Positions 5,001 to 63,772 of a stretch of DNA of 64,000 nt are shown one piece after another. The notes under the pieces are model-generated. The model ran no database searches. It was not told where the DNA came from and saw only the letters and a list, made by a program, of their open reading frames with translations. Every line of letters begins with the position of its first letter. The first letter of the stretch is position 1. The stretch covers positions 5,395-69,394 of IMG/VR virus record IMGVR_UViG_3300045391_003766. The stretch is one strand, 5' to 3'. A program made the translations under genes and the position numbers. The stretch is from a virus.

Positions 5001-6931
5001 CGGGCGGATACAAAGACCTCGCGATTGAGTCCTCCCGGCTGATCCATCTGGGCGACCGGGCCGGAGCCGCCGAAACAATTAACCGCTGCCTCGGCCTCGG
5101 CGTGAAGGGCGACTTTGACAGGCCCGACAAACACATGCCGGTGATCCAGACCTTCCTCCACTACATGCTTAATGAGAACGGCATGGAAGAAGCCGCCGCG
5201 ATGCTGTGGACGCCCACGCAATTTACCTCGGAGCCCCAATATACTAAAGACCTCTGGAAGCTGTTTGATGAGACCAACGCGGGGTTGATCATGGGTGCAG
5301 CATCGTGCTCGAAATCCTATGGCATCGGCGTCCGGCTGTTTCTCGAATGGATTCGCGATCCTGAATACACAACCATCAAGGTGATCGGCCCAAGTGAAGA
5401 GCATCTTGAGCAGAATTTATTTTCGCACTTGGTCAGTCTTCACAACAGCGCCACGCTCCCCATGCCCGGCGAAGTCGGAGAACTTTTCATCGGCCTCGAC
5501 CGGCGAGACATGGTGTCGTCTATCAAGGGTGTCATCATCCCCGTGGGGAAAGTCAAAAAGGCCGGACGGTTGCAGGGCGCGAAACGGAAGCCGCGCATCA
5601 AACCGCATCCGATCTTCGGCCCGCTCTCGCGCATGTTCGTGTTCATCGATGAAATTGAAAACGTGCCGGGCGGGCTATGGTCCGACATCGACAACGTGTT
5701 CTCGAACATTGGCGATGACGTTCACGGCCTAAAGATTTTCGGCGCATACAACCCCACCAACATGAGCGACGAAGTGGGCAAGCGCGCGGAGCCGCTTTTT
5801 GGTTGGGAAAACTTCGATCCCGACAAACACTTTCGATGGAAGTCGAAGCGTGGATGGGAAGTTCTCCGGCTCGACGGGGAGAAATCGGAAAACGTCGTTC
5901 AGGGTAAAGTTATATTTCCGGGATTGCAAACGCGCGCGGGCCTCGAACAGATTGCGCGCAACGCGGGCGGGAGAAACTCGCCGGGATATTTTTCGATGGG
6001 TCGCGGCGCGTATCCTCCGCAGGGCATCGAACTGACCGTCATTCCTCCGGCCATGTTCTACAAAATGCGCGGAGAGTTTATCTGGTATGAAGCGCCGCAG
6101 CCAACGTCCGGGTGCGACGTGGCGCTTGAAGGCGGAGACGCGGCCAGCTATTCGTTGGGCCGGTGTGGTTGGGCAACCGGAATGAAGCTGCCGCCGTCGA
6201 TTGATTTTCCGAATGGCCGGACGGTGATGTTCAAGTCCCCGAAGGGCCGCGTGGTGCCGCGCTGGGGCGTGCAGCTTGATCAACAATTTTCGTTGGAGAA
6301 GGGGGACACGCCTCACATGAAAAACGGTGTGCTTAATGTCACGAAGCGCGCCGGGGTGAAGCCGGAATATTTTGCAATCGACCGAACGGGCGTCGGCGCG
6401 GGTGTGGCGGATTTGATCAAGGACGAATGGTCTCGTGCGATCCACGACATTAACTATTCTCAAGCCCCAAGCACGGACAAAATAATGACCGAGGACTCCA
6501 TGACGTGCGATCAAGAGTATGATCGAATTTGCTCGGAATTGTGGTTTATGACACGCGCATATGCGGAGTTTGGCTATCTGCTCATCGCGCCATCGGTGGA
6601 CATCGCGGAGTTGTCGCAGCAGGTGACGCAGCGCCGATACCGGGCCGCAGGAAAAACGAAGAAGGTGGAAGCCAAGCGAGATTATATGTCGCGCGGTTAC
6701 AAATCACCGAATGAAGCAGATTCGCTCACGCTCATGATCTACGCGGCGCGCAAAGGCTCCGGCATCACTCCAAGTATGACGGGCGAGTCGGTGCGCGGGC
6801 CGGACAACGACGGCGGGCTCGACGATGATTGGTGGACTTCCCGGTATCCGGGCGGCGTCATCATCGATCCGACCAACCGGGCCGACGTTCTTGACGAGAG
6901 TGCCTCTGAGGATCACTTTTTATCGACATGA
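4994..6931 (+). CDS. terL: Terminase large subunit
   Basis: Divergent Walker A GAASCSKS, Walker B FVFIDEIE, and RNase H-like nuclease motifs GCDVALEGGD, FAIDRTGVG, SPNEADSL. Start placed at ATG 4994. Confidence 0.85.
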   Translation: MLTGGYKDLAIESSRLIHLGDRAGAAETINRCLGLGVKGDFDRPDKHMPVIQTFLHYMLNENGMEEAAAMLWTPTQFTSEPQYTKDLWKLFDETNAGLIMGAASCSKSYGIGVRLFLEWIRDPEYTTIKVIGPSEEHLEQNLFSHLVSLHNSATLPMPGEVGELFIGLDRRDMVSSIKGVIIPVGKVKKAGRLQGAKRKPRIKPHPIFGPLSRMFVFIDEIENVPGGLWSDIDNVFSNIGDDVHGLKIFGAYNPTNMSDEVGKRAEPLFGWENFDPDKHFRWKSKRGWEVLRLDGEKSENVVQGKVIFPGLQTRAGLEQIARNAGGRNSPGYFSMGRGAYPPQGIELTVIPPAMFYKMRGEFIWYEAPQPTSGCDVALEGGDAASYSLGRCGWATGMKLPPSIDFPNGRTVMFKSPKGRVVPRWGVQLDQQFSLEKGDTPHMKNGVLNVTKRAGVKPEYFAIDRTGVGAGVADLIKDEWSRAIHDINYSQAPSTDKIMTEDSMTCDQEYDRICSELWFMTRAYAEFGYLLIAPSVDIAELSQQVTQRRYRAAGKTKKVEAKRDYMSRGYKSPNEADSLTLMIYAARKGSGITPSMTGESVRGPDNDGGLDDDWWTSRYPGGVIIDPTNRADVLDESASEDHFLST

Positions 6932-7500
6932 AGATCAACGTCAATCTTTATCCCAAGGAGGGATTTTTTTTCAAGGACGCAGACGGCGTGATTCACCGCG
7001 CGAGTAGCTGGAAGGGGGTAATTTCAAGACTCACGAATTATCGTTCGCGTAGCGGCATGGCTCCGGGCGATCCCGAATCCGAAGTGATGGCGCAGGCGTG
7101 CGCGCGTAACCCGGCTCTTTGTTGTCAACCGAATCCCGAACGCGACTACAAACTCAAGCTGGCTTCATTGAAGGGAAAGGTTTTGTCGTGGCTTTCTGCT
7201 ATCGCACGCGAGAAGGCGAAGGAGCCGCTTCAATTCGTCCGTGAGTCCGAAGCGGCAGAACGTCGAAACGTCTGTGCGACTTGCCCCAACAATCAACCGC
7301 TGGCGGAAGGCTGCTCAGCATGCAAGGCCGCAGTGCGCGAAATGCGCCGGGGACTTCTTGGCCAGAGGCCGATTTATGAAACGCTCAACGGATGCTTGGC
7401 TCTCGGCCAAGATAATGCTGTGGCGGTTCATCTGAACGAGCAGCGTGTGGAAAACCCGGAACTTCCGCAGCATTGCTGGAAGAAAAGAGGTGGCGCATGA
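6928..7500 (+). CDS. Cys-rich hypothetical protein
   Basis: CATCPNN, CSACK and GCLALG; coupled to the terL stop. Confidence 0.55.
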   Translation: MKINVNLYPKEGFFFKDADGVIHRASSWKGVISRLTNYRSRSGMAPGDPESEVMAQACARNPALCCQPNPERDYKLKLASLKGKVLSWLSAIAREKAKEPLQFVRESEAAERRNVCATCPNNQPLAEGCSACKAAVREMRRGLLGQRPIYETLNGCLALGQDNAVAVHLNEQRVENPELPQHCWKKRGGA

Positions 7501-7760
7501 AAATTAAGAAATCCGTTACCTATCGATTTAATTGCCCGGCTTGTGGCAACGCTCATGTGTTCAACGACTCGTGGACGGTGGAAGGCTCGCCGGACAAGCC
7601 CACAGTTAAACCGTCAATAAGAGTTACAGGATGGCACGAAACTCATGGCGGCAGAGACTACGTTTGCCATGTAAATATAAAGGAAGGAATGATTCATTTT
7701 GAGGACGATTGCACGCACCCGTTTAAAGGACAAACCGTCCCGCTTCCAGAACTTATATGA
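7497..7760 (+). CDS. DUF6527-like metal-binding protein
   Basis: CPACGNAH...PTVKPSI...CH...DCTHPFKGQTVPL pattern recognised from memory. Confidence 0.6.
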   Translation: MKIKKSVTYRFNCPACGNAHVFNDSWTVEGSPDKPTVKPSIRVTGWHETHGGRDYVCHVNIKEGMIHFEDDCTHPFKGQTVPLPELI

Positions 7761-8014
7761 AAATTCCCAATCCTTTTCGATTCGCGGTGTCCATGCTGAT
7801 CATGGTATGGTGGAAGCTGCGCGGGTATGAAGTGCTGGCCACGGAAGAAAATTTCACTGACCGGACGTTCAAGTGTCTTTCGTGTCCGTTCTATGACGAG
7901 ATTTTCGGGCAGTGCAAAGTTTGCTCGTGTTTTATCGGCGCGAAAGCCCGGCTGAATCACGAGAAGTGTCCCAAGAATCGATGGGGTCGCCTTTACATTA
8001 AGCGCCCGGTCTAA
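7757..8014 (+). CDS. Cys-rich small protein (DUF6171-like)
   Basis: CLSCP...CKVCSCFIGAKARL...KCPKNRW. Confidence 0.55.
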   Translation: MKIPNPFRFAVSMLIMVWWKLRGYEVLATEENFTDRTFKCLSCPFYDEIFGQCKVCSCFIGAKARLNHEKCPKNRWGRLYIKRPV

Positions 8015-8024
8015 CACTGTTTAC
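8015..8024 (+). promoter_or_regulatory. Late motif CACTGTTTAC
   Basis: Exact copy, 2 nt before the portal ATG at 8027. Confidence 0.7.
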
Positions 8025-8026
8025 CG

Positions 8027-10126
8027 ATGCCGGACATCAGCTACGCTACTACTCCCTCTTCGGTGAGCAATAAATGGAACGCCACAGGCGGTATCATTCA
8101 GTCACCGATGGTCAATGACCAAGGCACGCCGACTCAGAAATCGATCCGCGATGTCACGATGGCCCAAGAAATTGTCAAGCTGGTCGTGCAGGCAAATAAG
8201 AACCGCAACATCGTCAATGCTCGCATTCTGGCGAAGTATAATGCAGAGCGTCCCTATGACGCCGGGAAACTTGAACAAGAGGGTCTCGGCTGGCGGCAGA
8301 ATTTCACGACGAAGCCTCTTCCGTTGATGATCGAGAAAGTCGCTCCCCGATTTGTCGAAGCGGTGCAAGGTTTGAAGTATTTGACGAACGCGACGCTCTC
8401 GGACAAGTGGCAGAACGCCACCGGCAAGACCGAAAAATTTCGCAAGATAATCACCGACACGATCCGGGGCCGCAAGGGCTGGCGCACGTTGATCGAAGAC
8501 ATCGCGTTTGACAATGCGCTGTTCGGGCATACAGTCGTCGCGTGGCTCGATGAATTTACGTGGTTCCCCTCGCACTTCCAGATGGATGCAAACTTTCTGC
8601 CGGACGGAGTGAAGCAGACGGTTTCGTATTGTCAGGTCGCGGTGCTAAAAGAGATTTTTCTTCCCCACGAACTTTTCGACATGATCAAGGACCGCGAGGC
8701 GGCGAAACTGGCCGGATGGAATATCCCCGCCGTGATCGAGCAGATCAATAAGGCTTCTCCTGCGCAGCTTCGTGACCGGCTTAACGTCGGCGGCACTCTC
8801 GAAACATGGTATCAGAACGCCTATCGCGAGTTGGTCCTCGGCGTGTCCTACATGGCCGGGGCGAGCGTTATAGTGGTTTACAACCTGCTCGCGCGCGAAG
8901 TCACCGGCAAGGTCTCGCACTACCGGCTCGCGGGGACCGAGAACGCAGAAATTTTTTCAAGGGACGACCGCTTTGAAAGCATGGAGTCGTGCATGTCCTT
9001 CTTCGCCTTTCAAAAAGGAAACAGCACGATGCACGGAAGCAAGGGCGTGGGCCGCGACATCTACGAACTGGCCGGGATGCTCGACCGGACACGCAATGAA
9101 ATTGTTGACCGCTCGATTCTCTCCGGCAAAACTGTGGTGCAGGGCGACATTAAGCGGCTACACACGTTCAAGATGTCCATCATCGGCTCGACGGTGATCT
9201 TCCCGAACGGCTGGGAGATTTTGGAACAGAAGATCGATGGCAATATCGAGCCGTTCCTGAAACTGGACGCCTATTTTTCGATGCTCGTTGATCAACTTAT
9301 CGGCTCGACCTCGCCCCCGGCGCAGTTGCTCCAAGGCGAACGGAAGTCTCCGGCACTGATCGATCTTTTCGCATCTCGCGAAGAGGAAGCCCGCGATGTT
9401 CGTATCACCCGTTTTCTTGAGCAGTTCACGGACATGGCAGCGACGATGCAACGGCGGATTTGCGATCCCAATACTTCGGACGACGATGCTAAAGCGGCGC
9501 AAAAGGAATTGCTAAACTTTATGACTCGCGAGGAACTCGATGAACTGGCCAAACAACCAGTGGCGAGCACCGTTCGCGATTTGACCCCGCAACAGCGACA
9601 GTTGATTGTTTCCGTCGCTAACGAGAAGAAGGGGAACCCGCTTTACAATCAGCGCGCTCTCGAAGTCGAAGACCTTACGGCGCGCATCGGAATGGACTTT
9701 GCAAACAAAGTTTTGATTGCGGATAACGATCCGACCGAACAAGCTGAACAGCAAAGACAGCAACAGATAGAGATGGCTTTGCTCTCGCTCGGCCAGCCGG
9801 TGCCGGTTTCGCCGCGCGACAATCACGAAATTCATTTGAGTGTCGTGTTGCCCGCCGCCGAACAGATGGCGCAGCATTTGATGGACGGCAAGACGGACAC
9901 GAACGCTTTTGAGGCGATCCTCGCTCATCTAACTGAGCACTATAACCAAGCTTTACAGCACGGCGTCCCGAAGGAAAAACTCGCGGAGGTTGCACAGGTC
10001 GTCAAGAATGCAGGCCCGGCGCTCGCGAAGTTGAAGCAGCTTGATCAACAGGCGGCGGCGCTTGCGCAGCAGTCGCAGGCCCACGATGCCGAAGCCCCCG
10101 AAATGTCACAGTCACCTAATCCCTAA
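8027..10126 (+). CDS. Portal protein (putative)
   Basis: 699-aa largely helical protein with a Gln-rich tail, between terminase and scaffold. Called from gene order and size. Confidence 0.7.
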   Translation: MPDISYATTPSSVSNKWNATGGIIQSPMVNDQGTPTQKSIRDVTMAQEIVKLVVQANKNRNIVNARILAKYNAERPYDAGKLEQEGLGWRQNFTTKPLPLMIEKVAPRFVEAVQGLKYLTNATLSDKWQNATGKTEKFRKIITDTIRGRKGWRTLIEDIAFDNALFGHTVVAWLDEFTWFPSHFQMDANFLPDGVKQTVSYCQVAVLKEIFLPHELFDMIKDREAAKLAGWNIPAVIEQINKASPAQLRDRLNVGGTLETWYQNAYRELVLGVSYMAGASVIVVYNLLAREVTGKVSHYRLAGTENAEIFSRDDRFESMESCMSFFAFQKGNSTMHGSKGVGRDIYELAGMLDRTRNEIVDRSILSGKTVVQGDIKRLHTFKMSIIGSTVIFPNGWEILEQKIDGNIEPFLKLDAYFSMLVDQLIGSTSPPAQLLQGERKSPALIDLFASREEEARDVRITRFLEQFTDMAATMQRRICDPNTSDDDAKAAQKELLNFMTREELDELAKQPVASTVRDLTPQQRQLIVSVANEKKGNPLYNQRALEVEDLTARIGMDFANKVLIADNDPTEQAEQQRQQQIEMALLSLGQPVPVSPRDNHEIHLSVVLPAAEQMAQHLMDGKTDTNAFEAILAHLTEHYNQALQHGVPKEKLAEVAQVVKNAGPALAKLKQLDQQAAALAQQSQAHDAEAPEMSQSPNP

Positions 10127-10138
10127 CGATGAACACCG

Positions 10139-10459
10139 ATGATTACCGCCGACTCTCTTGAATGGACCTCTGAGGACATCGCCATATGGCGTCAGTTTCT
10201 TCAGACCCGAACTGGTTCTCGATTGCTTCCCAAAGTTGCCGAAGCCGCGCCCGCGCTGCTCCCGCATGGCGATACCAACGCCATCTTGATTCGTTCCGGG
10301 GAACTTCGAGGCGTTCAGGAGGCGATCCGAACAATGCTTGCATTGACGCAAGAGGAGCCCGCGCCCGAAAAAGAAGTCACCGCGTATCCGGCGCTCGACG
10401 ACGATTCAGCTTGGAACGACAAGCAAAAGATTGATACTCAACCTGAACAGAATCCTTAA
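10139..10459 (+). CDS. Hypothetical head-module protein
   Basis: 106-aa ORF between portal and scaffold. Confidence 0.55.
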   Translation: MITADSLEWTSEDIAIWRQFLQTRTGSRLLPKVAEAAPALLPHGDTNAILIRSGELRGVQEAIRTMLALTQEEPAPEKEVTAYPALDDDSAWNDKQKIDTQPEQNP

Positions 10460-10462
10460 CCT

Positions 10463-11776
10463 ATGCCCACTCCAAATACACCTACCGACCCGGCACAGAA
10501 CAACGCGGACGTTGCGAAAAAACTGGCCGACCAAGACCAATCTCTAAAGCCGTCTCCGCCAGCGGAGTTGCAGGCTACCGACGCCGCGCTCGATGCGCTC
10601 GCGAAGGAGGCCGAAGCGAAAGCAAAGGAAGCCGCTGCCGCGCCGGAGCCGAAGGCCGATGCGCCACCTGTAACGCCTGACCCAGCCAAGCCAGACGCGC
10701 CTGTTACTCCCGTCGCCCCAGTCGAAGACCCGGCCAAGAAGCGCGCGGAGGAACTTTTCAAGGACTCGCCCAGCCTTCCGACGAATGCGAGCCCTCGGTC
10801 GTCCGAAGCGTTTTCGGCGGTCAAGATCAAAGCTGCACAAGAAGTCAGCAAGCTTGAATCCGCGCTCGCGGAGAGAGACAAAAAGCTGGCTGAAATGGAA
10901 GCCAAACTCAAAGACCCCGTTCCCCCGGAGTTGGCCAAGGAAGTCGAAGACCTCCGGCAGTTCCGCGCCCGGCTCGACGTGGAGGCCGATCCCAAGTTCA
11001 AGGAATTTGACAAGTCCATCGCGCAGACGCAGGAGTTTATTTACGACCAGCTTCGCAAGAACCCCGCGATCACCGAGGACACAATCGCCGCGATCAAGAA
11101 ATACGGCGGGCCGGAGAACGTGAACCTTGACAAAGTTTTCGAGGCCGCGAAAGACCCGGCGCTAAAGCGTATCGTCGATTCTGCGATCACGGACATCGAA
11201 AAGGCGAAGTTCAACAAGGCCGAAGCGATCAAGTCCGTCAAAGCGAACATCGATCAATACATCCAAGAGCGTCAGAAGGCCAACGAGAAATCGGCCACGA
11301 TGCACACGGAGGCTACCAAGCAGGAACTCAACAAAATCATTCCCAAACTGGAATGGCTACAGCCGAAGGCCATCGACGAGAAAGCCGACGCTGAAACTAA
11401 GAAATCGTTGGAGGCCCACAACAGTTTCGTTTCGGAAACGAACAAATCTTTGGAGTCGGCGCTTCACGACGATTCTCCTGAGATGCGCGCCATCATGCTG
11501 ACCGGCATGGCCCAGCTTCTTTATTTGCAGCGGGTCCACGAAGCGGCTCTCGCCAAGAGCGCGGCTCTCGAAAAACAGGTTGGCGAATTGACCAAACAGA
11601 TCGACGGTTACAAGAAGGCCAGCACGAGCCGTCTTCGCGAGAGCGGAGCGCCGCCTACTCCTTCGTCTGTTCCCGGAGTCAAGCCAATCGATCCGTTCAA
11701 CACGCGCGCCGTGGATGCCCTCGACCGCATTCGCGATCAGGTGGTGGAAGCGCATACTAAAGCTGCCGGTCAATGA
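10463..11776 (+). CDS. Capsid scaffolding protein (putative)
   Basis: Pro/Ala-rich N-terminus and long charged coiled coil; position after the portal. Confidence 0.6.
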   Translation: MPTPNTPTDPAQNNADVAKKLADQDQSLKPSPPAELQATDAALDALAKEAEAKAKEAAAAPEPKADAPPVTPDPAKPDAPVTPVAPVEDPAKKRAEELFKDSPSLPTNASPRSSEAFSAVKIKAAQEVSKLESALAERDKKLAEMEAKLKDPVPPELAKEVEDLRQFRARLDVEADPKFKEFDKSIAQTQEFIYDQLRKNPAITEDTIAAIKKYGGPENVNLDKVFEAAKDPALKRIVDSAITDIEKAKFNKAEAIKSVKANIDQYIQERQKANEKSATMHTEATKQELNKIIPKLEWLQPKAIDEKADAETKKSLEAHNSFVSETNKSLESALHDDSPEMRAIMLTGMAQLLYLQRVHEAALAKSAALEKQVGELTKQIDGYKKASTSRLRESGAPPTPSSVPGVKPIDPFNTRAVDALDRIRDQVVEAHTKAAGQ

Positions 11777-15281: not shown

Positions 15282-16580
15282 ATGGCTTTTTTCTGCGATG
15301 ATCCCAGTGCAATTTCCGATATTGCATCGAAGGATACAAACCGTATCATCGGCACAATTGCGAAAGCGTTGGCCGCGAATTCGGTTTACATGAATGTCAT
15401 CGGAGGCGGGGTTTTCCCGTCCGGCGTGTCTGACACCGTTCGTTCGGTGGTCCAGATGCAAGCAGCCCCCGGCGATTCGTTCGCCATCCCCACTTTCGTA
15501 TGCGATACGGAAATCTGCGGTCAGACGGGGCATCAAGACCTTACCGACACGGTTGAATTCACGCTCCGGCTTGAGTCATTCCGTGGCCGTGGTCCGAACA
15601 TCTGCGTCAAGAAAGGTTACGCGGCGTTCAAAGGCAGCTACACGATGGCTGAGGACAGTTTGAAGAAACTCGTCACTCAATACATCAACGCTGACGTGCG
15701 CGCTCAACTCTACCTGCGCTCGGCCTCGAAGTTCACCGCGAATGCGAACTACGACTTCAACTCGTTGTTCACTGGCGGTCTCGAAACCGACCTCGGTGTG
15801 CAGTTCGCCCCGCTGTTGCCTACTGGTCCTATGACCTTCAAGGCGCTCCACTACATCGCTCGCTACCTCCGCGAAGTCCTCTTCGGCGAGTGGTATGAGA
15901 ACTCTGGCGGGATGCCTCATTTCCGCTTCATCGGTGGCTCCGATCAGATCGAATATTTTCGTTCTGAAATCGGCGTCCAGAACGTGATGGTTGCCCTTAC
16001 CACGGGCGGCTACAAACTCGGCGAGACCACGCTGACCGCGTATTCGTTCGAGCAGTCTCCGGCTTACCGGGGCATCGCGTTTGGTGTCGATCAACGCCCG
16101 CTGCGCGCTACCGGCTTCAACCCGGACGGCACGCTCGCGCTTGTCGATCCCGTTACCATCGTGAGCAATCCTGCTCGCGGCACCGCATTTGCGAAGCCGA
16201 ATCCGGCTTGGCTGAACGCCGATTATGAAGTTGGCGTGTTGATTGCTGACGGCTCGTTCGAGCGCCTCGTCCCGGAGAAATACGTGGGCGAAAGCACGTT
16301 CAAGTTTGCTCCGCAACTCCACATGGGAGAACTCGAATGGCACTACATCATGGACAATGAGTGCAATCAGTGGGGAGATTTCGGCTGGCACAAGTATCAG
16401 GTTACTCGCGCCTACCGTCCTCTGCGCCCGCAGCACATCATCCCGATCCTGTATAAGCGTTGTCAGGCCGACCTCGGCTTGGTGAACTGCGCCGACACCA
16501 GCGCCAGTAGCTATACCGGCAGCGACGCCTTCTCCACCATTGGAGTTTGCGACGACGACGAAACTCCGGTGATCCACTAA
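15282..16580 (+). CDS. Major capsid protein
   Basis: 432 aa, after scaffold and GT block. Strongly biased codon usage suggesting high expression; structured leader and downstream hairpins. Confidence 0.75.
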   Translation: MAFFCDDPSAISDIASKDTNRIIGTIAKALAANSVYMNVIGGGVFPSGVSDTVRSVVQMQAAPGDSFAIPTFVCDTEICGQTGHQDLTDTVEFTLRLESFRGRGPNICVKKGYAAFKGSYTMAEDSLKKLVTQYINADVRAQLYLRSASKFTANANYDFNSLFTGGLETDLGVQFAPLLPTGPMTFKALHYIARYLREVLFGEWYENSGGMPHFRFIGGSDQIEYFRSEIGVQNVMVALTTGGYKLGETTLTAYSFEQSPAYRGIAFGVDQRPLRATGFNPDGTLALVDPVTIVSNPARGTAFAKPNPAWLNADYEVGVLIADGSFERLVPEKYVGESTFKFAPQLHMGELEWHYIMDNECNQWGDFGWHKYQVTRAYRPLRPQHIIPILYKRCQADLGLVNCADTSASSYTGSDAFSTIGVCDDDETPVIH

Positions 16581-22363: not shown

Positions 22364-22741
22364 ATGAAAGTCAACATCGACCTCGACCAATCGGACTCCT
22401 ACCCCTCAATGGCGGTTGCTGGTCCTGAAGACAAACCTCACTACCCATCATTCCAATACTCCGGGGAGGAATCACTCAATCTGCCGAAGGAAGGGACGAT
22501 GCTCGTTCATTTCAGAACCGTTTCCGAAACGGAGGCCACGGACGAGAACGGTGACGACCGTTATACTTGCGTCGTCGAACTCCGGGAGATTTTAGCCATA
22601 ACGTCAGAGAAAAAGGCTCCGACAAAATCTGGCAGTGAAGCCGAAGACGCTCTCGACGCGCTCATGCGAAAACGCATGGAGGAAGAGGAAGCCGGGGAAA
22701 GTGCGGAAAAAGAGGCCAGCGAGGACGAGGGGAAGGAATAA
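22364..22741 (+). CDS. Acidic hypothetical protein
   Basis: 125-aa Glu/Asp-rich ORF at the head of the tail block. Confidence 0.55.
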   Translation: MKVNIDLDQSDSYPSMAVAGPEDKPHYPSFQYSGEESLNLPKEGTMLVHFRTVSETEATDENGDDRYTCVVELREILAITSEKKAPTKSGSEAEDALDALMRKRMEEEEAGESAEKEASEDEGKE

Positions 22742-31666: not shown

Positions 31667-34600
31667 ATGCCGACTCCTGCCATTGGTGAAGAAGTTCAGT
31701 TGACGCCCGAACAGCAAGCGCAATACGAGCAACTTTCTGCGCCTACCTCTAATGAGGTTGATCCCATTCGGGATTTCAACTCCCAACAGCTTTCGGAGTT
31801 GGCCGTCAAAGACCCCAGCTTTAATCTCGTCGAAGCTTTTCGTCAGCACCCGGACAAATCACCAGAGGTTGTCCAGAAGGTCGCCGACGCGCACGACGCG
31901 ATCACGAAGCGCGGTTTTCAGTTGTCCGATTTGCCGAATCCCGTCAAGGCGGTCCCTCAAGCCGTTTATGAATTCGGCAAAGGCATTCTCAAGCAGGCAT
32001 GGAACTATGCCAATGCCGGTGCGGCAGCAATAGCAGGCGCAACGGTTGGGGGCGCTGCCGAAAACGAAATGATTCAAGAGGCCCAGCGGCGAGTTGGAGA
32101 AAACATCGCCGGGACTGAGCAGGCCGTCACAGGTTTGTCGAATCAAATTCAGGCCACAGGCCGCAAGGCCGCGAATCTCGTCACAGGCGGCGCGCAGACT
32201 CCCGAAGAGCGAGTAAAAAATTTGTGGGACGCGGTTGGTCGTGGAGAAGTGGCTGAAAATATTTCTAAGGGTCACGGCGCTTTCATGTCCGGCGTTGGCG
32301 GCAACGTGGTTCAAGAATTGGAACAAGCCGGTAAGCCGATTCGTCCTGAAGAAGTCAATACGCTCGCGCAAGGCGATCCTTTCACTTTTTGGTCGTTCGG
32401 AAAAGTCCTTGGCGGCGCAGGCAGGCTTGCTGGGAATATTCCGGGCGTGCAGGCCGCTACCAGCAAAGTTGGGGCCGCTTTGTCCACCGCAGCCGCTACC
32501 GGAGTTGGCAAAACAATTCAAGTTGCGGCCCCCGCAATCAAAGCGGGCGGCAAGACGGCGGAATTCCTCGGTGGAGGTATTAAAACCGTAGGCCCGCTAG
32601 TTCAGGGGCTGGAAGCACTCGCCACGGGAAATGTTTCACATGCCGCAGAAGGCGTAGGCAGCTATTACGGCGGTTCGGCGCTCCAGTGGATCGGCCAGCA
32701 GGCGGTAAAAAAAGCACAACCGATCAAACAATTTGGAAAACAAATTACGGGAGAAATCCCGCTCACGTCGCCATCTGCACAGGTCGTGAAAGATGTCGCG
32801 CAAGCCCTGCCCGGTGCTGCCGGAGAAGTTGCCAAAGGTGCCGCGTTAGACCTTGGTCTCGCTGCCGCCACTTCGGAATCGCCGGAGCAAACGCAGAACG
32901 CTCTCGGCCTTGGAACTGCTTTTGGTGCACTGTCCGGCGCGGGCCGCACTTTGGGTCACGTCGTCAGCGGCCAGATCATCGCGCCGCGCTCGTGGGGGAA
33001 TCCAACTCCCGTCGCTCCCTCTGGAAATTTTCCATCGCTCAATTCGGCGCACTCTCAAGCCTACGCTTCGGCTCCTGTCGGTGTGCAGACTCGCATTAAC
33101 GCGATTCGCCAATTCGCCAAAATGGCGGCTCCCGGCACGGACGTTTATTACGTGAACGACAAACCGGCGCTCTCGAAGGCTCTGGTCGATTCTGGTGTTG
33201 CCCCCGCGACGGCGGACCTGTGGTCAAAGCAGCTTGGTTTTTTCAGCACGGATTTGACTGGTAAAGACGGCCAGCAACATCCGGTCCTCGTCGTCACTGA
33301 TGCGGATGCCGCACCGCACGAATCTTTTCACGCTTTTCAAGACGTGCTCGGTGAAGAGGGCAACCGTGCCATTGATGAAATCGTCAAAAAGGACTATGGA
33401 GACCGCTGGGAGCAAGAAGGCCGTCGATACACGGAACGGGCCGCGCAACCCTCCGGCGTCGAAGTCGGACCTGACTGGCGATCCACGTTGCTCGATCTGA
33501 CCGGCTGGGGCCGCAGTGAGGCCATTGAAAAACTTACCTCGTCTCTCGAAAATCAACTCACTTCGGAGGGACAAGAACCGAACGCGGATTTTATTCGCCA
33601 GCGTGTCGATGGAGAGTGGAACAGACTGCGCGAGCAGGCGAAAGCCAACAACCCACAGGCCACTCCGGCAGAACTCGAATCGTCGATTTGGCGTGACGTG
33701 CTTTCGCCGGACGAAGCGAAAGATACCGCCGACCGATACATCGCGCGCGAACTCGCCGCTGAGAATTTTGATGCCATTTTCAAAGCACAGGGTCCGGGCC
33801 TCGTCGAAAACAAATCTTTGCCCGGCCAATTGGCGCGCGTGGTCGCAAAAGTGATGTCCGCATTGGGGAGCAATCCTCTGGCCGGACGACAAACGCAGAT
33901 CGGCAAAGTCGAACCTCGTTTTCAGACGACGGAGGCTGTGCGCAAGGCTGTGTTGGAGCAACAGCCCCCGGCTACTCCAAGTGCTGCTGCGACGCCGGAG
34001 AAACCGACTCCATCGACTCCTACTCCTTCTGCTCCTACTCCTGCCCCCGCGCCTTCTCCATCTCCCGAAGCGGAAAAAATCCGGGACTGGACGGCCAAGA
34101 ATCCGCCCACGGTGCCGGACAGATTGCGCGCCGCCGACACTATCGCTAATGCTATCGACAACGAGCAGACTGTCCAAGTGATCTATTGGGGTGCCAAGGG
34201 AGAACAGGGCGGCAGCATTGAGAGCGTTCGGCCAGAACGGCGCGCGGAAATCGAAGCCCAGCGCGAAGCGGGTAACGAAGACCGTCCTCTGGTTCAGAAA
34301 ACCTTTTTTCCAGAGCGCGTAGAGATGACAGGTAAAGGGCCGCAGATTGTTGGATGGTCTCCCGATAATTTTTACGCCAACGCCAATAAATTTGCGCAAT
34401 GGATTGATCAAGTCGGTGATGCGGCGCGTCAAAAGTTCGCGCTTTACAGAACCGACGGCAACGGAAATTTCACAGAGGACGGCTGGCGGTATCTACAGCA
34501 CGTCCTTAACGCTTTCATGCAGAACCAGCGCGCCGGTGCTACCGGGGCAGGCGAGCCGCTGATTGTCCCCAAGGAAACTCTGGCGAGAGGATTCACTCAG

Positions 34601-37600
34601 CCGAAAAAAGAAGGCACGGTCACACACATTGACCAAGGAGACGCGGACGTAATCAATTATCTTTTCCATGTTCAAATCCCGGAGAGCACTAGCCGGGTTG
34701 CACCGCTGCATATCGCCGGGCAAGAAATTTCTGAAGCCACGCAACCAAGCCGGTTACAAATCCCGGTTCGTCCTCGCGGCGAATACACGGAGGCGCAACT
34801 TTCAAAGGCCAACATCGCCGGGCCGCGCGGAGTCCGGGAAGTCAATCCGCTGCGAAACTGGATCGAGCAGGCCGCGAAATCCTCTGGTGTCGAAGCACCG
34901 TCGCTGATAGATGTTAGCCAACGTTTGAATTTGAGTCGCATTGCGGATGCGACGACGACACCCGAAGTCGCGCCAGTTCGCGGGAACACACTTACGCTCG
35001 CTGCTGGTTTCCAGCCGCCCAGTCTCTCGGACGAACCGGAAGCGATCAAGATTGCGGCGATCCGACTTCCGAACGGAAAAGTTTACGAGGCCGACAACTA
35101 TGGCTATCCCACTCACGGCGGCGCGCTGGCCAAGGCAAGACAGGCCGGAGAAGACATCCCGCAAATGATGCGGAGAAACGTTCCGGGGATCGTCGAAGGT
35201 TTCGTCACGAACAGCGGAGAATTCCTGAATCGCAAAGAGGCGTTTAAACGTGCTAAGGAATATGGCCAGATCACGGGCGAAGAGTTTTTCCCGCGTCCCG
35301 GTGAATTGGAATCGGTCAGTTTTGAACGCACCGCACATGGCCAATTTCAGCCCCCACAAATCGAAGAGATTGAGCGCATGTCGCCCGAAGAATTTACAAA
35401 ATGGGCGGAATCTTTGTCAGGAAATGGGGGATTCACCAGTGTCGCATACAAAGCAGGACTTCGGGCCTTCGAGGCGGGGCCAGAGGCAGTCGCTGGTTTA
35501 CTTGACGCCTACGACCGGGCGACAGCACAGGCTAAAGCGCTGTTCAAGACGGACATTCAGGCCGCAATGACTACCTCTTTCAAAGGCCAATATTTTCGCG
35601 AAGCGTGGGAAGCCGCAACGGGCCTCGGCTCTGGCGGCGAGATGCTCCGCAAACTTAAGGCTGGGCAGTTTCAACCGCAGGCCGCGCGCGAACTTACGCC
35701 GGAAGAAGAGCCTTCGCGCTCTGTCCCTTCATTTTCTACAGTTCGCCGACCTGAAGAGCAACCGGCGCAACCAGCCGGAGCCGCACGACCTTTTCTTCCG
35801 TCGAAGCAAGCCGAACCTGCGCCAAGCGCTGTCAAACTTCCGACCGCCGTTCCCGCTGCGCCCCAAGTGCAGACAGAAGAGGAAAAGAAACGCGCGCAGT
35901 TTCAGGGTCAAACCGATGTCCGAGACGTGGCCGAAAAATACGCCAAGTCTGCGGGCATTGAAGGTTACTCCGCCAATCGAAACTTTGAGCCTGTCCCCGA
36001 AGACTTGGCTCGCAAACTGGCGGACCATTACGAGAGCGCAAAGTCTGATCCCAAAAATGCTGACGTGCAAAAGTCCTACGCGGCACTCACGGACGAAACC
36101 GTTCGGCAGTTCCACGCGATTGAGAATGCGGGATACCAAATTGAACCTTTCACTGGCACCGGCGAGCCCTATAAGTCCAGCGCCGATATGGTCAAGGACG
36201 TGCGAGAGAACAAACATCTTTTCTATCTACCTACGAAAGAGGCGGGCGCGCTCGGAAAAGACAATCCGATGATGACTGACAGCGGCATCGAAATCAACGG
36301 CGAGCGTTTGCCGGTCAACGACGTATTCCGCGCCGTTCACGACTTTTTCGGTCACGCCAAGGAGGGTTTTCAATTTGGACCGCGCGGTGAATTCAACGCA
36401 TGGCGTGAGCACTCCGAAATGTATTCCCCGGATGCGCAAGGGGCGCTTGCGGCGGAGACTCTCGCGCAAAATTTCTGGGTCAACTACGGCAAGCACCTTC
36501 GCACCGGCCCGGAAGGTCGTATTCCGGCGAAAGGCGAAGAGGGGCATGTCGCTCCGCCGAACCGACCCTTCGCCGAACAGAAAAACGTCGTTATCCCGGA
36601 GAAATTTCTGGAGGAAGCTCGCAGTGCGTTTAAACAGCCTGAGCCCACTGCGCAACTTCAACCAAAATCTGAGGAAGACTTCAAAATGCCGAAAGGCACC
36701 GCAGGGGGATTCAAAAAAGCGTGGATCACTCCCGATGGCGCGCCGGTCCAACTGGGCGGACAGTGGCACTCCGATTGGTTGGATCAGAATCGGAACATGC
36801 TGGAACAAAAATATGGCATTACCGGCCTTCCGAAATTTGAGGGGACGGATACCGAAGTCGCGCGTGAAAAAGCTTTGGCTGCTGGATTCGCCCGGCTCAA
36901 CTACGCCATCAATAGCGGCAAGCTGACCGTTGAAGCCCGTGACGCCGATTGGAAAAACCTGAAAGAGCCGGTTCGGCATTTTGCGGAGGCAAATCTGGAC
37001 GATCTGGACAATATGTCAGTGCATCTGCTTGACAACAATTTGAAAGATGTCACGCGGAGCAAGAGCGCGCAGCTTTTCAAATATGGGTCCGACGCTGAGA
37101 AACTCGCCAATTTGCCGTTGCCTGATGTGGGGGAAGCGCCAAGCATGGAGGCCGCTTCAGAGCGTCTTTTCCAGAAGGCCGTCAAGGGCCAGCTTCAACC
37201 GAATGAAGAACAAACGACCTTGTTCGGAGAGAAAAATAAAGAGCCCCTTACCGGCGCGCAGGTCTCCGGTATGACGCGAGACGAATTGCTGAATCATTAC
37301 CCGGAGGCCATTGTTCCTCGAAAGCGCGATGATACCATTCCTTCGGAAATCACCAAGTCGCCGCTCTATAAACAGAGCCGGAATGAGCCGGAAGCGGTCA
37401 AGGCGTTCGGAGAAAAGCTTGCGGACTTCTACAACTCGGTTAAAGACAATCCCGCGACGCAGGCTGGTGCGAAATGGTATTCTGACTTCGTGCCGCGCCT
37501 GAAAAAAGAATTCGGCAAGAACGCTCCGCTCATGGCGGAATTACTCGCGGCCACAAGCCCCCGAACCAACGTTGAAACTAACTTTGGCTACGCCTACGAC

Positions 37601-38326
37601 GCCCTCAAAAGTTTTGAAGCTGGGCGCTTCGACAAGATCATCGCCAAATTCAATCAGGGAATGGACATGATCACTGACGACCGCTGGCTCTCGTGGTATA
37701 ACCGCGAGTTGAACGCTGGGAACATTCCCAATCCGCCGCAAGAACCGACGCCTGCGGCGTTTCTGGAACACTGGATTTTCACGCACAACCTGAAGCCCAC
37801 ACAGAGCAACGGAAAACTCTACGGGACTCACTCCATTCCCGTGCTGAAAGTTTTCGCGCGCCGATGGATGGATGAAAACACCGGCCCGAAGACTAGAACC
37901 TTTGTGTCGAACCTCACCGGCATGGGACACGAGGCGACAATTGATATGTGGGCCGACCGGACGATGCGCCGTCTCGGATATGAGGGCTACAAGGACCGTT
38001 GGAGGATTTTGCCTCAGAACTTGCACAGCGTAAGCGACGAGGATTTCTATTTTTCTCAAAAGGCTTTTCGTGACGCCGCCGAGCGCGTTGGAATTCAGCC
38101 GGACGCGATGCAAGGGGCTTTGTGGTTTGCCGAAAAGCAATTGTGGGCAGACAATGGCTGGGCCAAACTCGATCTAGGGGACTTCAGCAAGGAACTTGAA
38201 AAAGTTCCGATGCTCAAGAGAGCGTTTGAACAAAAACTTGCAAAAACCAAGGAACAGGGTAAAGTAAAGGCGGGGACTGAGGGCGAATTATTCGGCCCGT
38301 CAGTGACACCCCGACCAAAACTATGA
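31667..38326 (+). CDS. Giant polyvalent ejection protein with zincin-like metallopeptidase motif and several C-terminal domains
   Basis: 2219 aa. Gly/Ala-rich amphipathic N-terminal region, HESFH at aa 551-555, HDFFGH...GE from aa 1558, recurring Q[FL]QP linkers. Confidence 0.75.
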   Translation: MPTPAIGEEVQLTPEQQAQYEQLSAPTSNEVDPIRDFNSQQLSELAVKDPSFNLVEAFRQHPDKSPEVVQKVADAHDAITKRGFQLSDLPNPVKAVPQAVYEFGKGILKQAWNYANAGAAAIAGATVGGAAENEMIQEAQRRVGENIAGTEQAVTGLSNQIQATGRKAANLVTGGAQTPEERVKNLWDAVGRGEVAENISKGHGAFMSGVGGNVVQELEQAGKPIRPEEVNTLAQGDPFTFWSFGKVLGGAGRLAGNIPGVQAATSKVGAALSTAAATGVGKTIQVAAPAIKAGGKTAEFLGGGIKTVGPLVQGLEALATGNVSHAAEGVGSYYGGSALQWIGQQAVKKAQPIKQFGKQITGEIPLTSPSAQVVKDVAQALPGAAGEVAKGAALDLGLAAATSESPEQTQNALGLGTAFGALSGAGRTLGHVVSGQIIAPRSWGNPTPVAPSGNFPSLNSAHSQAYASAPVGVQTRINAIRQFAKMAAPGTDVYYVNDKPALSKALVDSGVAPATADLWSKQLGFFSTDLTGKDGQQHPVLVVTDADAAPHESFHAFQDVLGEEGNRAIDEIVKKDYGDRWEQEGRRYTERAAQPSGVEVGPDWRSTLLDLTGWGRSEAIEKLTSSLENQLTSEGQEPNADFIRQRVDGEWNRLREQAKANNPQATPAELESSIWRDVLSPDEAKDTADRYIARELAAENFDAIFKAQGPGLVENKSLPGQLARVVAKVMSALGSNPLAGRQTQIGKVEPRFQTTEAVRKAVLEQQPPATPSAAATPEKPTPSTPTPSAPTPAPAPSPSPEAEKIRDWTAKNPPTVPDRLRAADTIANAIDNEQTVQVIYWGAKGEQGGSIESVRPERRAEIEAQREAGNEDRPLVQKTFFPERVEMTGKGPQIVGWSPDNFYANANKFAQWIDQVGDAARQKFALYRTDGNGNFTEDGWRYLQHVLNAFMQNQRAGATGAGEPLIVPKETLARGFTQPKKEGTVTHIDQGDADVINYLFHVQIPESTSRVAPLHIAGQEISEATQPSRLQIPVRPRGEYTEAQLSKANIAGPRGVREVNPLRNWIEQAAKSSGVEAPSLIDVSQRLNLSRIADATTTPEVAPVRGNTLTLAAGFQPPSLSDEPEAIKIAAIRLPNGKVYEADNYGYPTHGGALAKARQAGEDIPQMMRRNVPGIVEGFVTNSGEFLNRKEAFKRAKEYGQITGEEFFPRPGELESVSFERTAHGQFQPPQIEEIERMSPEEFTKWAESLSGNGGFTSVAYKAGLRAFEAGPEAVAGLLDAYDRATAQAKALFKTDIQAAMTTSFKGQYFREAWEAATGLGSGGEMLRKLKAGQFQPQAARELTPEEEPSRSVPSFSTVRRPEEQPAQPAGAARPFLPSKQAEPAPSAVKLPTAVPAAPQVQTEEEKKRAQFQGQTDVRDVAEKYAKSAGIEGYSANRNFEPVPEDLARKLADHYESAKSDPKNADVQKSYAALTDETVRQFHAIENAGYQIEPFTGTGEPYKSSADMVKDVRENKHLFYLPTKEAGALGKDNPMMTDSGIEINGERLPVNDVFRAVHDFFGHAKEGFQFGPRGEFNAWREHSEMYSPDAQGALAAETLAQNFWVNYGKHLRTGPEGRIPAKGEEGHVAPPNRPFAEQKNVVIPEKFLEEARSAFKQPEPTAQLQPKSEEDFKMPKGTAGGFKKAWITPDGAPVQLGGQWHSDWLDQNRNMLEQKYGITGLPKFEGTDTEVAREKALAAGFARLNYAINSGKLTVEARDADWKNLKEPVRHFAEANLDDLDNMSVHLLDNNLKDVTRSKSAQLFKYGSDAEKLANLPLPDVGEAPSMEAASERLFQKAVKGQLQPNEEQTTLFGEKNKEPLTGAQVSGMTRDELLNHYPEAIVPRKRDDTIPSEITKSPLYKQSRNEPEAVKAFGEKLADFYNSVKDNPATQAGAKWYSDFVPRLKKEFGKNAPLMAELLAATSPRTNVETNFGYAYDALKSFEAGRFDKIIAKFNQGMDMITDDRWLSWYNRELNAGNIPNPPQEPTPAAFLEHWIFTHNLKPTQSNGKLYGTHSIPVLKVFARRWMDENTGPKTRTFVSNLTGMGHEATIDMWADRTMRRLGYEGYKDRWRILPQNLHSVSDEDFYFSQKAFRDAAERVGIQPDAMQGALWFAEKQLWADNGWAKLDLGDFSKELEKVPMLKRAFEQKLAKTKEQGKVKAGTEGELFGPSVTPRPKL

Positions 38327-60766: not shown

Positions 60767-61113
60767 ATTTCAAATGCCTTTCGATTGTATTTCGGATCGT
60801 TCATGTATTTTCGGTGAATCGGGTCAGAGGCCAGCGCGTTTCCGTTCTTGAGTCGTAGTGGTTTGTTGCGTATCCGGTGCCGAAGTTCCTCTTGATCCAT
60901 TTCCTGCCAGAACAAGCGCACAGTTTCCTCGCCAGACTCGTGCGACTCCAAACGAATCATGCCGGTATATCCCACTTCAGGCATAACAGCGGTGCAGTCG
61001 ATGGTCAGGGTCCACTCAATCGACGAGTCGAGATAGTCGTCGAGCGGACTATAGCGCGGCAAGCCGAGTTGCGCGGCAGTGAGTGCGCCGAGATGTTGAA
61101 GAGAGAATTTCAT
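60763..61113 (-). CDS. Hypothetical protein
   Basis: Abutting ORF in the early array. Confidence 0.45.
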   Translation of the reverse strand: MKFSLQHLGALTAAQLGLPRYSPLDDYLDSSIEWTLTIDCTAVMPEVGYTGMIRLESHESGEETVRLFWQEMDQEELRHRIRNKPLRLKNGNALASDPIHRKYMNDPKYNRKAFEI

Positions 61114-61439
61114 TCGGGTAACGTTGCAAAATCCAGAAAGGGAATGCGCCGGGTCTCTTGCAGGCGCTCGAAATCATACGGCGCGGGTGCCGCCGTGCGA
61201 CGAAAAGCAATTGCCACTCGGTCTGGCGGCAGCGGGCCAGTATGGAACCTAGGATCAAGCCCGCGATAGGTCTGCATTCGATTCCCGCGTATGCTCTGCC
61301 TACGAAGATGCGCCACGCGAGGATCAATTCGCCGGGGCATCGTTTTGAAGTCAGTGTATTCACTGTGCTCATAGATGCGGCCAAACCAGCGTGGGCCGTC
61401 GCCGCCGAGCATAAGAAAAGCTACTTGGTGTTCTCTCAT
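61110..61439 (-). CDS. Arg-rich hypothetical protein
   Basis: Start at ATG 61439, overlapping the upstream stop. Confidence 0.45.
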   Translation of the reverse strand: MREHQVAFLMLGGDGPRWFGRIYEHSEYTDFKTMPRRIDPRVAHLRRQSIRGNRMQTYRGLDPRFHTGPLPPDRVAIAFRRTAAPAPYDFERLQETRRIPFLDFATLPE

Positions 61440-61846
61440 GCGGGCGAAAATTTGGTGTTGAAAACATCGAATGGCGTTTGGACCGGCCATTCGTCGGTGG
61501 CTTGCAATCCGTTTGGGTTGAACCTGAACATCACGACGTAAGCTTGGCCTTTCGCATCAAAGCCCACGTTCAGTTCTGAGTATGCCTCGTCGTGATACGC
61601 GCGGTTCGGCACTACACATTTGCCGGAGATGTTGTCCACCACTTTGAAGGGAACAAGCATCGTGCCATCGTAACGAAAACGAATCGGCCAAGGGTCGCGA
61701 ACCCAGCGAACTATTTTTGCTGGATAGACGCGCTCTTCACTCGCCCATGCGTCAGGCTCCGGTGTGGAGGCACGCAATGCGAAAGGCGCAGCAAACAGAC
61801 CTGCCGCCGCTACGACGGTTCGACGAAAAAAGTTTCGACGGTTCAT
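61436..61846 (-). CDS. Twin-arginine-signal protein with an MCP-like segment
   Basis: MNRRNFFRRTVVAAAGLFAAPFALRA; aa 51-91 resemble MCP aa 270-316. Confidence 0.6.
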   Translation of the reverse strand: MNRRNFFRRTVVAAAGLFAAPFALRASTPEPDAWASEERVYPAKIVRWVRDPWPIRFRYDGTMLVPFKVVDNISGKCVVPNRAYHDEAYSELNVGFDAKGQAYVVMFRFNPNGLQATDEWPVQTPFDVFNTKFSPA

Positions 61847-62597: not shown

Positions 62598-63089
62598 TTA
62601 CTCGTCGAACAATTCGTCCGGCTCTGTGAGCACCACGCATTCGCCACTCAGCGCCAGCGGGATCAGCCATTTGAGATTTGGCAACACATCCCCGTTCGCG
62701 TTGCCAAGCACGCCTTGCGCGTCAAACAATGAAACCAGTTCATCCGTTGCACTGTGTATGGATGAAACGTTTCGCCATTCCGTCATTGCGCGGAAAAAGA
62801 ACACGCGCACGCCGTTCTGAAAAGTGTAGGTCGCGAAATGCCCCCATGATCGTTGGGTATCATCGCCGGTCTCTTCCTTCCATTCGCGGTGCATCGCCAT
62901 AAGAGGCGATTCGCCCGGCTCAATCTTACCGCCGATGCCATTGAGTTTGCCTCGCTGCCACGCGGGTTTTACTTTGAGGATAAGGTAAACGCCGGGCCGT
63001 TGCCAGAGGGCCAGCCGATCCGTGACGAAAAGAAATCCGCACACATAATCGGCGGGCGTTTGTGATTGTTGATCAGACGTTGATGCCAT
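62598..63089 (-). CDS. NUDIX hydrolase
   Basis: Nudix box GGKIEPGESPLMAMHREWKEETG. Confidence 0.9.
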   Translation of the reverse strand: MASTSDQQSQTPADYVCGFLFVTDRLALWQRPGVYLILKVKPAWQRGKLNGIGGKIEPGESPLMAMHREWKEETGDDTQRSWGHFATYTFQNGVRVFFFRAMTEWRNVSSIHSATDELVSLFDAQGVLGNANGDVLPNLKWLIPLALSGECVVLTEPDELFDE

Positions 63090-63382: not shown

Positions 63383-63772
63383 CTACTTGTTTGGATTGCC
63401 AACTGGGATGATGTTCGATGGCGCGCTGTCTCCACCACTGTTTGCTTCGGTTTGCTGTGCAGCTTGAGCGGCGGCGGTGCGTGCGCGAATGTCATCAACG
63501 CGGGCGAGGATGCCAGACACGGCCATGAGCAGCGGCTGGTATTCGCGGTTCAATGTGACCCACGCGCCGAGGAATTCGTCAGCGTGCGCGAGCAGCGAGT
63601 TGTGCAGGAACTTTTTCAAACCCTCCATCTCCGCGTCCTTCGTTGGCGTTGTCAGCTTGGATGAAAGCAACTCGCCCAGCTTGATGTAGGCGGCTTGCAT
63701 CTGCGCGATTTGATTGATCGTCAACGGACGATAGGAATTTGAGGGAGCTTCGGCTTGTGTATCAGTTGGCAT
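63383..63772 (-). CDS. Hypothetical helical protein
   Basis: 129-aa ORF with an A/C-rich leader. Confidence 0.5.
   Translation of the reverse strand: MPTDTQAEAPSNSYRPLTINQIAQMQAAYIKLGELLSSKLTTPTKDAEMEGLKKFLHNSLLAHADEFLGAWVTLNREYQPLLMAVSGILARVDDIRARTAAAQAAQQTEANSGGDSAPSNIIPVGNPNK

Follow-up and report, generated by a model that had tools for sequence, protein, structure and literature searches.

What is the role of a small early phage gene that seems to join an export signal to a piece of the phage's own capsid? The question is raised by gene P0001 of IMG/VR record IMGVR_UViG_3300045391_003766, a complete phage genome of 72,895 bp with 70-bp direct terminal repeats, which belongs to a soil phage of the N4-gp56 type. 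The window analysed here is the stretch of 64,000 nucleotides that spans bases 5395-69394 of this record. P0001 lies on the minus strand of the window at 61436..61846 and encodes 136 amino acids (aa) plus a stop, its open reading frame (ORF) beginning at the first possible start codon. An earlier note on this DNA had described P0001 as an early gene whose product couples a leader resembling those of the twin-arginine translocation (Tat) system to a segment, residues 51-91, that resembles residues 270-316 of the major capsid protein (MCP). Our results lead us to a different view of the capsid-like part. We lean towards the view that P0001 is an optional, fast-evolving member of an early-strand protein family, with a Tat leader, an eroded copy of a piece of the MCP and a new C-terminal domain, and that it most likely has a role in conflict at the level of the cell envelope.

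A search of 5.8 billion clusters with P0001 returned P0001 itself as the sole match. Two matches were obtained with phmmer among 1.8 billion representatives; both were long repeat proteins, and they were discarded as artefacts because their scores add up over the repeats. Pfam, PHROGs, NCBIfam and PADLOC, whose profiles include the known defence and exclusion families, gave no match, and no related loci were found when they were sought by way of the NUDIX gene. Comparison with 18 near-complete sister phages revealed weak, leader-level matches in two of them. The homologue in sister phage G009 (P0125, 120 aa) matched P0001 by BLASTP at E=2e-6 over the leader and the motif DPxPxRFR, and it had two relatives of its own. 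Using a four-sequence profile, we found members of this family in 10 of the 17 near-complete relatives. The family members are 89-120 aa long and present a leader MNRR[NS]F[FL][KR] with an Ala/Gly-rich hydrophobic region (h-region), a core [VI]xNPx[WY]xxAPYE[IL]xF and, after it, the motif DPxP[FVLI]RF[RH]. The most conserved element is the core, NPxWxxAPYE[IL]GF. The second motif is specific to the family: the pattern P.P[FVLI]RF[RH] occurs six times in the 705,782 ORF residues of 11 phage genomes, every time in a family member, P0001 included.

The core of the family proved to be related to the capsid protein. A comparison of four members with 25 MCPs by hhalign gave E=1.1e-4, and with 11 members the match spanned 26 columns, family positions 42-67 against MCP residues 302-327, and reached a Prob of 91.9% (E=6.9e-7). 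We used 40 conserved protein families of these phages as an empirical null. The MCP was the sole match of the family among them, scoring 48 where the next best reached 18 (Prob under 1%), and this was true with or without the leader. Searches with hidden Markov models (HMMs) covered all 6901 ORFs of the 11 genomes. With an HMM of the mature part of the family, the 11 MCPs were retrieved directly after the family members, interleaved with a NUDIX ORF of sister phage G016 in which a family remnant is present (E 2e-5 to 0.03); below the MCPs stood two short family-remnant ORFs and otherwise noise (E ~0.7 and above). A 30-column HMM of the core gave E-values of 1.3e-7 to 0.026 for the MCPs. The reverse search, with an HMM of MCP residues 300-330, recovered eight of the small family proteins together with the NUDIX-tail remnant of G016 and a short-ORF remnant of G015 (E 2e-6 to 7e-3). 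Finally, the pattern NP.[WY]..A.YE was found 19 times in the same 705,782 residues, in the 11 MCPs and in eight family members.

The agreement between the two proteins can be close: in G009, the family member and the MCP are identical at 12 of 18 consecutive residues. A shared DNA element or a recent gene conversion was ruled out as its source, given that about half of the codons for the identical residues differ. The same divergence of synonymous codons indicates that the likeness is conserved at the protein level. The motif is present in MCPs that are only 37-58% identical to that of the window phage, but the small family occurs in a subclade only; the copying therefore went from the MCP to the small protein. 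These results show that the family core derives from a strand-helix-strand piece of 20-26 residues of the phage's own MCP (residues 302-327), and that the copy is old and has been conserved at the protein level. When HK97-fold MCPs are considered (N4-gp56, Gp13-like and Phage_capsid_3/4), the conserved residues are the same in the family core and in MCP 302-327. The family holds only ~6% of the MCP and is therefore not a capsid fold; in P0001 that small part, too, has eroded.

The capsid protein itself is encoded by gene P0002 (15282..16580, plus strand; 432 aa). No sequence profile that we searched named this protein. Its language-model neighbours are Phage_capsid_3, Gp13-like, Phage_capsid_4 and N4-gp56, at scores of 0.96-0.97, and an AlphaFold2 model built with 25 relatives presents a long spine-like helix (residues 116-145) and a confident beta-rich region (residues 265-330). 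When this protein was compared with the PDB using Foldseek, every one of the best 50 rows was a chain of a phage capsid or of an encapsulin (lowest E 2.4e-3). We identify P0002 as an HK97-fold MCP on the basis of these neighbours, the model and the Foldseek rows. Over 680 proteins are related to it at 70-90% identity, and many of these are encoded on contigs of ~72 kb. The piece copied in the small family (residues 302-327, encoded at 16185..16262 on the plus strand) lies in the A-domain region of the model, where a strand (301-306), a short helix (308-311) and a second strand (315-322) form a block with a predicted local distance difference test (pLDDT) score of 73-89. The copied motif is kept even in MCPs that are 37-58% identical to P0002.

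P0001 retains only some of the family features. Its first eight residues are identical to those of the members in G002 and G004, and residues 51-58 (61673..61696, minus strand) read DPWPIRFR, the second family signature; this stretch fits the family-exclusive pattern DPxPxRF[RH] and is aligned with the family by hmmsearch. The family HMM finds P0001 at E=6.7e-5 among the 6901 ORFs. Its gene also has the position typical of the family, on the early strand, near NUDIX and downstream of a conserved anchor gene. The place of the core is taken by residues 27-46 (61709..61768, minus strand), a slot that is ~19 residues shorter than in the family and degenerate, with PDAW followed by SEERVYPAKIV. The core-motif HMM did not find P0001. 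The best high-scoring segment pair (HSP) of P0001 with the MCP in BLASTP, which is not significant (E=2.2), falls in this same slot and corresponds to MCP residues 322-335. Downstream, residues 60-136 (61439..61669, minus strand) form a lineage-specific C-terminal part that is predicted to be beta-rich and for which no relatives were found among the 1.8 billion representatives (phmmer) or in 10 sister genomes. These results show that P0001 is a diverged and re-modelled member of the family: most of the capsid copy has been lost by deletion or erosion, and the C-terminal domain is a new addition.

The leader of P0001 covers residues 1-26 (61769..61846, minus strand) and consists of the twin-arginine motif NRRNFFR at residues 2-8, an Ala/Gly-rich h-region of 15 uncharged residues with a mean Kyte-Doolittle value of 1.98, and LRA before the mature part. 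The Tat-like character that the earlier note had seen in this N-terminus is thus borne out by the motif, by the h-region and by the basic residue and alanine that follow it. P0001 is the sole Tat-like small ORF of the phage genome. Across the family, RR is present in 12 of 13 tabulated members (the core set of 11, P0001 and a tandem paralogue in G001), and the Pfam model TAT_signal (PF10518) matches 6 of 11 members with a best E of 5.8e-4. The nearest language-model neighbours of P0001 are Tat substrates (scores of 0.83-0.86, which we treat as a lead only), and they include UCR_Fe-S_N. The family also shares with Tat signal peptides and small Tat substrates (PF10518, TIGR01409; hydrogenase small subunits, the N-terminal anchor of Rieske proteins) the motif [N/S/T]-R-R-x-F-[FL]-[KR], an h-region that is weakly hydrophobic and rich in Ala/Gly, and a c-region with a basic residue. 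We infer that P0001 is targeted to the Tat pathway, based on its motif, its h-region and c-region charge, the Pfam matches of its relatives and the language-model neighbours. In contrast to known Tat substrates, it is encoded by a phage, lacks a cofactor, is small and hypervariable, and its export is predicted only.

The DNA pattern of the leader had only two matches in IMG/VR, one of them being another phage's Tat-leader protein with other cargo. On a 50 kb IMG/VR contig, a protein of ~185 aa (L143:1481-2040, plus strand) opens with MNRRNFFR plus an h-region, and its mature part is unrelated.

Some sister phages contain tandem copies or remnants of the family gene. Two tandem copies are present in G001 (L086:1459-2080); these genes have the leader and ITFDRCWK in common, and the core motif is degenerate in the second. 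G015 presents a 50-aa fragment upstream of its family member. In G016, a NUDIX ORF of 172 aa ends in the core motif NPEWANATHEI and is directly followed by a truncated ORF of 59 aa with the leader MKRRDFFRR (L080:1423-2122, minus strand); these look like rearranged or decaying family copies, fused to NUDIX. The location of the family gene follows two patterns. It lies 1.3-2.8 kb downstream of the gene for a 129-aa anchor protein in G000, G002, G005, G009, G010 and G011, as in the window, and it is found at another site beside NUDIX in G004 and G016, where NUDIX is directly upstream of the member. The gene directly upstream of the family member of G009 encodes a Cys-rich protein of 149 aa that has a signal peptide of the Sec type (L081:1594-2043, minus strand), and small exported proteins seem to cluster in this region. 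The family with the Tat leader is optional and fast-evolving: it is present in 10 of 17 relatives, occurs as tandem and remnant copies, and its neighbours are mostly without homologues.

In the window, structural genes occupy the plus strand up to ~38.3 kb, and from there to the right end the minus strand carries replication and accessory genes, which include a family-A DNA polymerase, a helicase, a metallophosphatase and NUDIX. P0001 is a real gene and is located in this replication/early-strand block. Immediately downstream, an ORF at 61110..61439 (minus strand) has a likely start ATG at 61439, which overlaps the stop of P0001 as ATGA when read from the sequence; this ORF is without a family match. 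A gap of 233 nt lies upstream of P0001, and neither a sigma-70-like promoter nor a copy of the late-gene 10-mer was found near the gene. Further upstream on the same strand are the NUDIX hydrolase gene (62598..63089; Pfam NUDIX E=8.8e-9) and the conserved 129-aa anchor gene (63383..63772), which is present in 9 of 10 sister genomes (blastp of the ORFs of G000).

Between 56790 and 63500 of the window, the minus strand contains ~30 candidate early ORFs. When these were compared with ten sister genomes, in which the MCP shares 70-90% identity with that of the window phage, only a handful had a homologue (E<=1e-5). The early region is hypervariable, since most of its ORFs are without a homologue in these ten relatives. 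Pfam and PHROGs gave no match for the MCP, for the proteins read as portal and terminase, or for most early proteins. Neither library matched any of the large proteins interpreted as terminase, portal and a 2219-aa giant (window 4577..11776 and 31667..38326, plus strand). This phage group is barely covered by current profile libraries. A scan of genome contigs with the MCP, conducted in search of the host, yielded only three contigs from metagenome-assembled genomes (MAGs), whose taxonomy is inconsistent. MCP relatives occur on contigs binned to a Peribacteraceae MAG and to a Rhodoferax MAG; the contigs are probably of phage origin and assigned to the wrong bins, and they therefore provide no reliable host.

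How might such a protein act? As judged from its sequence, the leader would take P0001 to the Tat translocase of the host, and the beta-rich mature part of ~110 residues would then either enter the periplasm or, if the leader is not cleaved, remain tethered through it to the inner membrane. P0001 could take part there in envelope-level conflict, for instance by excluding related phages or by modifying the host envelope. Such a role is suggested, more weakly than Tat targeting, by the combination of leader, genome position, optional presence, hypervariability and small size. Phages are known to encode exclusion proteins and early periplasmic proteins, such as Imm and Sp of T4, the antiholin RI of T4 and Llp of T5. 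Like the P0001 family, these proteins are small, non-essential, early, envelope-directed, fast-evolving and strain-specific. They show no sequence similarity to the family, and they use Sec-type, lipoprotein or transmembrane signals. To our knowledge, none of them carries a piece of a capsid protein. Superinfection exclusion (Sie) of T4 is mentioned in PMC13128918.

Several observations weigh against an envelope-level role or against parts of it. Exclusion is proposed by analogy only, and nothing in the sequence points to DNA entry or to receptors. The presence of a Tat system in the host is assumed. P0001 itself scores below the Tat models (nothing at E<=1 in Pfam or at E<=10 in NCBIfam), one family member has LR instead of RR, and a clear AxA cleavage site is absent from many members. 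The mature part of P0001 taken alone does not match the family significantly (E=4.6), so that P0001 is assigned to it through the leader, a single motif of 8 residues and synteny. Finally, the AlphaFold2 model of P0001, computed without an alignment, is all-beta and unusable (pLDDT 43), and this value was too poor for a fold search to be started from it.

An alternative with some claim to attention, although we consider it unlikely, is that the family is directed at the capsid. The copied piece would still bind the MCP, or the partner of the surface from which it derives, and the leader would tether or export the complex, so that capsid assembly is poisoned or timed, for instance in relatives that infect the same cell; in P0001 this activity would be on the way to being lost, or altered. 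The satellite proteins CpmB of SaPI and Sid of P4 redirect the assembly of helper capsids. Tab of P. aeruginosa prophages (Patel et al. 2024, PMC10884400), a phage-encoded defence protein, and the Tai systems (PMC11364771) block virion assembly. All of these are small accessory proteins of mobile elements, and the P0001 family could likewise act on phage structural proteins, in which case its copied MCP piece would be a natural, if hypothetical, handle on the capsid protein. They differ from the family in that their site of action is the cytoplasm, in that they lack a leader for export, and in that they are not copied from parts of their target. The residues kept in the small proteins (N, P, W/Y, A, P, Y and E) are those kept in the MCP while the rest diverges, and the family match is specific to the MCP; both observations are consistent with a retained contact. 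Cognate co-variation was not detected, the motifs of the small proteins being no closer to their own MCP than to others (permutation p=0.30-0.40). Moreover, a domain exported by Tat would not meet the capsid protein in the cytoplasm, and P0001 itself is without the piece. When the mature part of the G009 member was co-folded with the MCP of the same phage, the score was 0.00, which speaks neither for nor against a capsid-directed function.

The absence of an AxA site after the h-region in several members would also fit a protein that is held in the inner membrane by an uncleaved signal anchor and has a role in lysis timing or membrane remodelling like that of the T4 antiholin RI. The MCP-like piece would then be only a structural relic. 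The protein is small, its gene is located on the early strand and its N-terminal part contains a hydrophobic segment; uncleaved Tat anchors are an accepted class, as in Rieske proteins and in the neighbour UCR_Fe-S_N. Against this possibility, neither a holin nor an endolysin adjoins the P0001 gene, the Pfam, PHROGs and PADLOC profile searches gave no similarity to RI or to lysis proteins, and the conservation of the MCP-like motif argues for more than the filling of space. We therefore regard it as improbable. We assign a similarly low probability to a broader proposal, in which this phage group sends out or tethers copies of virion-protein contact pieces by means of a Tat-type leader. Such pieces would mimic the capsid and target the capsid protein, the assembly of competitors or a host factor that recognizes capsids, and P0001 would still be functional, with residues 51-91 as a second MCP stretch.

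We examined the alignment made by eye in the earlier note by several methods. Its coordinates and both peptide strings are right: the P0001 segment (residues 51-91) is encoded at 61574..61696 on the minus strand, and MCP residues 270-316 correspond to nt 16089-16229. The alignment is reproducible, with ~15 identities and 5-6 gaps, but its significance is at chance level. It was not reported by BLASTP, whose best HSP is the one described above. The full-length local Smith-Waterman score was 31, against 30.8 +/- 4.6 for shuffled sequences (p=0.47), and at standard gap costs the MCP ranked 32nd of 79 proteins of the same phage when compared with P0001. Under very permissive gap costs, the MCP came third in the list and second of 78 non-self proteins (z=2.6), with an unrelated protein scoring higher; the corresponding p-value of 0.024 is that of a single test. 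A profile comparison of P0001 with the 40 phage protein families by hhalign, the kind of check by which the claim was to be judged, did not support it, as the MCP came 19th with a Prob of 0.2%. HMMs of the MCP segment did not retrieve P0001 either. The two excised segments alone gave z=5.5, a value due to the post-hoc choice of segments after the match had been seen.

The true match between the family and the MCP lies at MCP residues 302-327 rather than 270-316, and it has been mostly lost from P0001. The notion of a capsid fragment thus holds for the family of P0001, whose core is a copy of an MCP piece, but not for the alignment on which it had been founded. Likewise, phage genes that join the leader to an MCP fragment do exist among the near-complete relatives mentioned above, although P0001 itself is without an intact piece. 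A conserved acidic protein of 125 aa in the structural block (window 22364..22741, plus strand) has GTMLV.F in common with residues 61-67 of P0001. This candidate relation was rejected, because hhalign gave a Prob of 13-25% and E of 8e-4 to 2e-3, which is not significant after 40 comparisons; by-eye matches of this type therefore arise easily. We also observed in G005 (C1:73072-73374, plus strand; locus L113) a leaderless Cys/His-rich ORF of 100 aa that contains DLRPLRFR and, ~30 residues further on, APYEV. This order is that of DQRPLR ... A.YEV in the MCP. Among the 40 families the MCP was the best hhalign match of this ORF, but with a Prob of 2% and E=0.022. Based on the permissive-gap p-value of ~0.02 and on the ORF of G005 with both motifs in MCP order, we see a slim chance that residues 51-91 of P0001 are a second, diverged stretch derived from the MCP.

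These results bear directly on one function proposed in the earlier note, that of an exported capsid mimic which decoys capsid-sensing immunity; residues 51-91 of P0001 would in this case be a genuine colinear copy of MCP 270-316. The alignment is colinear, it reached the permissive-gap values given above, the relation of the family to the MCP raises the prior for such a protein, and the leaderless ORF of G005 shows both motifs in the expected order. Under standard scoring it is indistinguishable from chance, BLASTP, HMMs and hhalign all fail to recover it, and an unrelated protein outscores the MCP. The known capsid sensors CapRel, Lit and PifA act in the cytoplasm, which is not where a Tat substrate ends up. 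Because the Tat leader implies export, a decoy of cytoplasmic capsid sensors fits poorly, and we find this function hard to credit. Most implausible of all is the view that the motif match between family and MCP reflects convergence or chance and that P0001 is an unrelated ORFan with a signal peptide. In its favour, the two proteins have only a short stretch of 20-26 residues in common, the mature part of P0001 does not match the family significantly, and hhalign statistics are imperfect for shallow alignments. Against it, the MCP scored 48 in the comparison with 40 families and no other family more than 18, two-way HMM E-values reach 1e-7, the motif patterns are exclusive in 705,782 residues, and P0001 is linked to the family by DPxPxRFR, by the identity of its leader and by synteny.

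Within the literature that we searched, no paper was found that joins a Tat leader to a capsid fragment, and a family type with an MCP piece and a Tat leader is undescribed there. Exclusion and host-takeover functions of phages sit in small exported early proteins, most of which are uncharacterized, and we favor such an envelope-level role for P0001. If the copied piece is functional in the family, it would represent a new means by which phages act on the capsid protein or on capsid recognition, and the NPxWxxAPYE motif together with the twin arginines would offer a testable handle on it. P0001 is of value mainly as a natural loss-of-motif variant; set beside intact members, it would reveal whether the family requires the capsid piece for its function.

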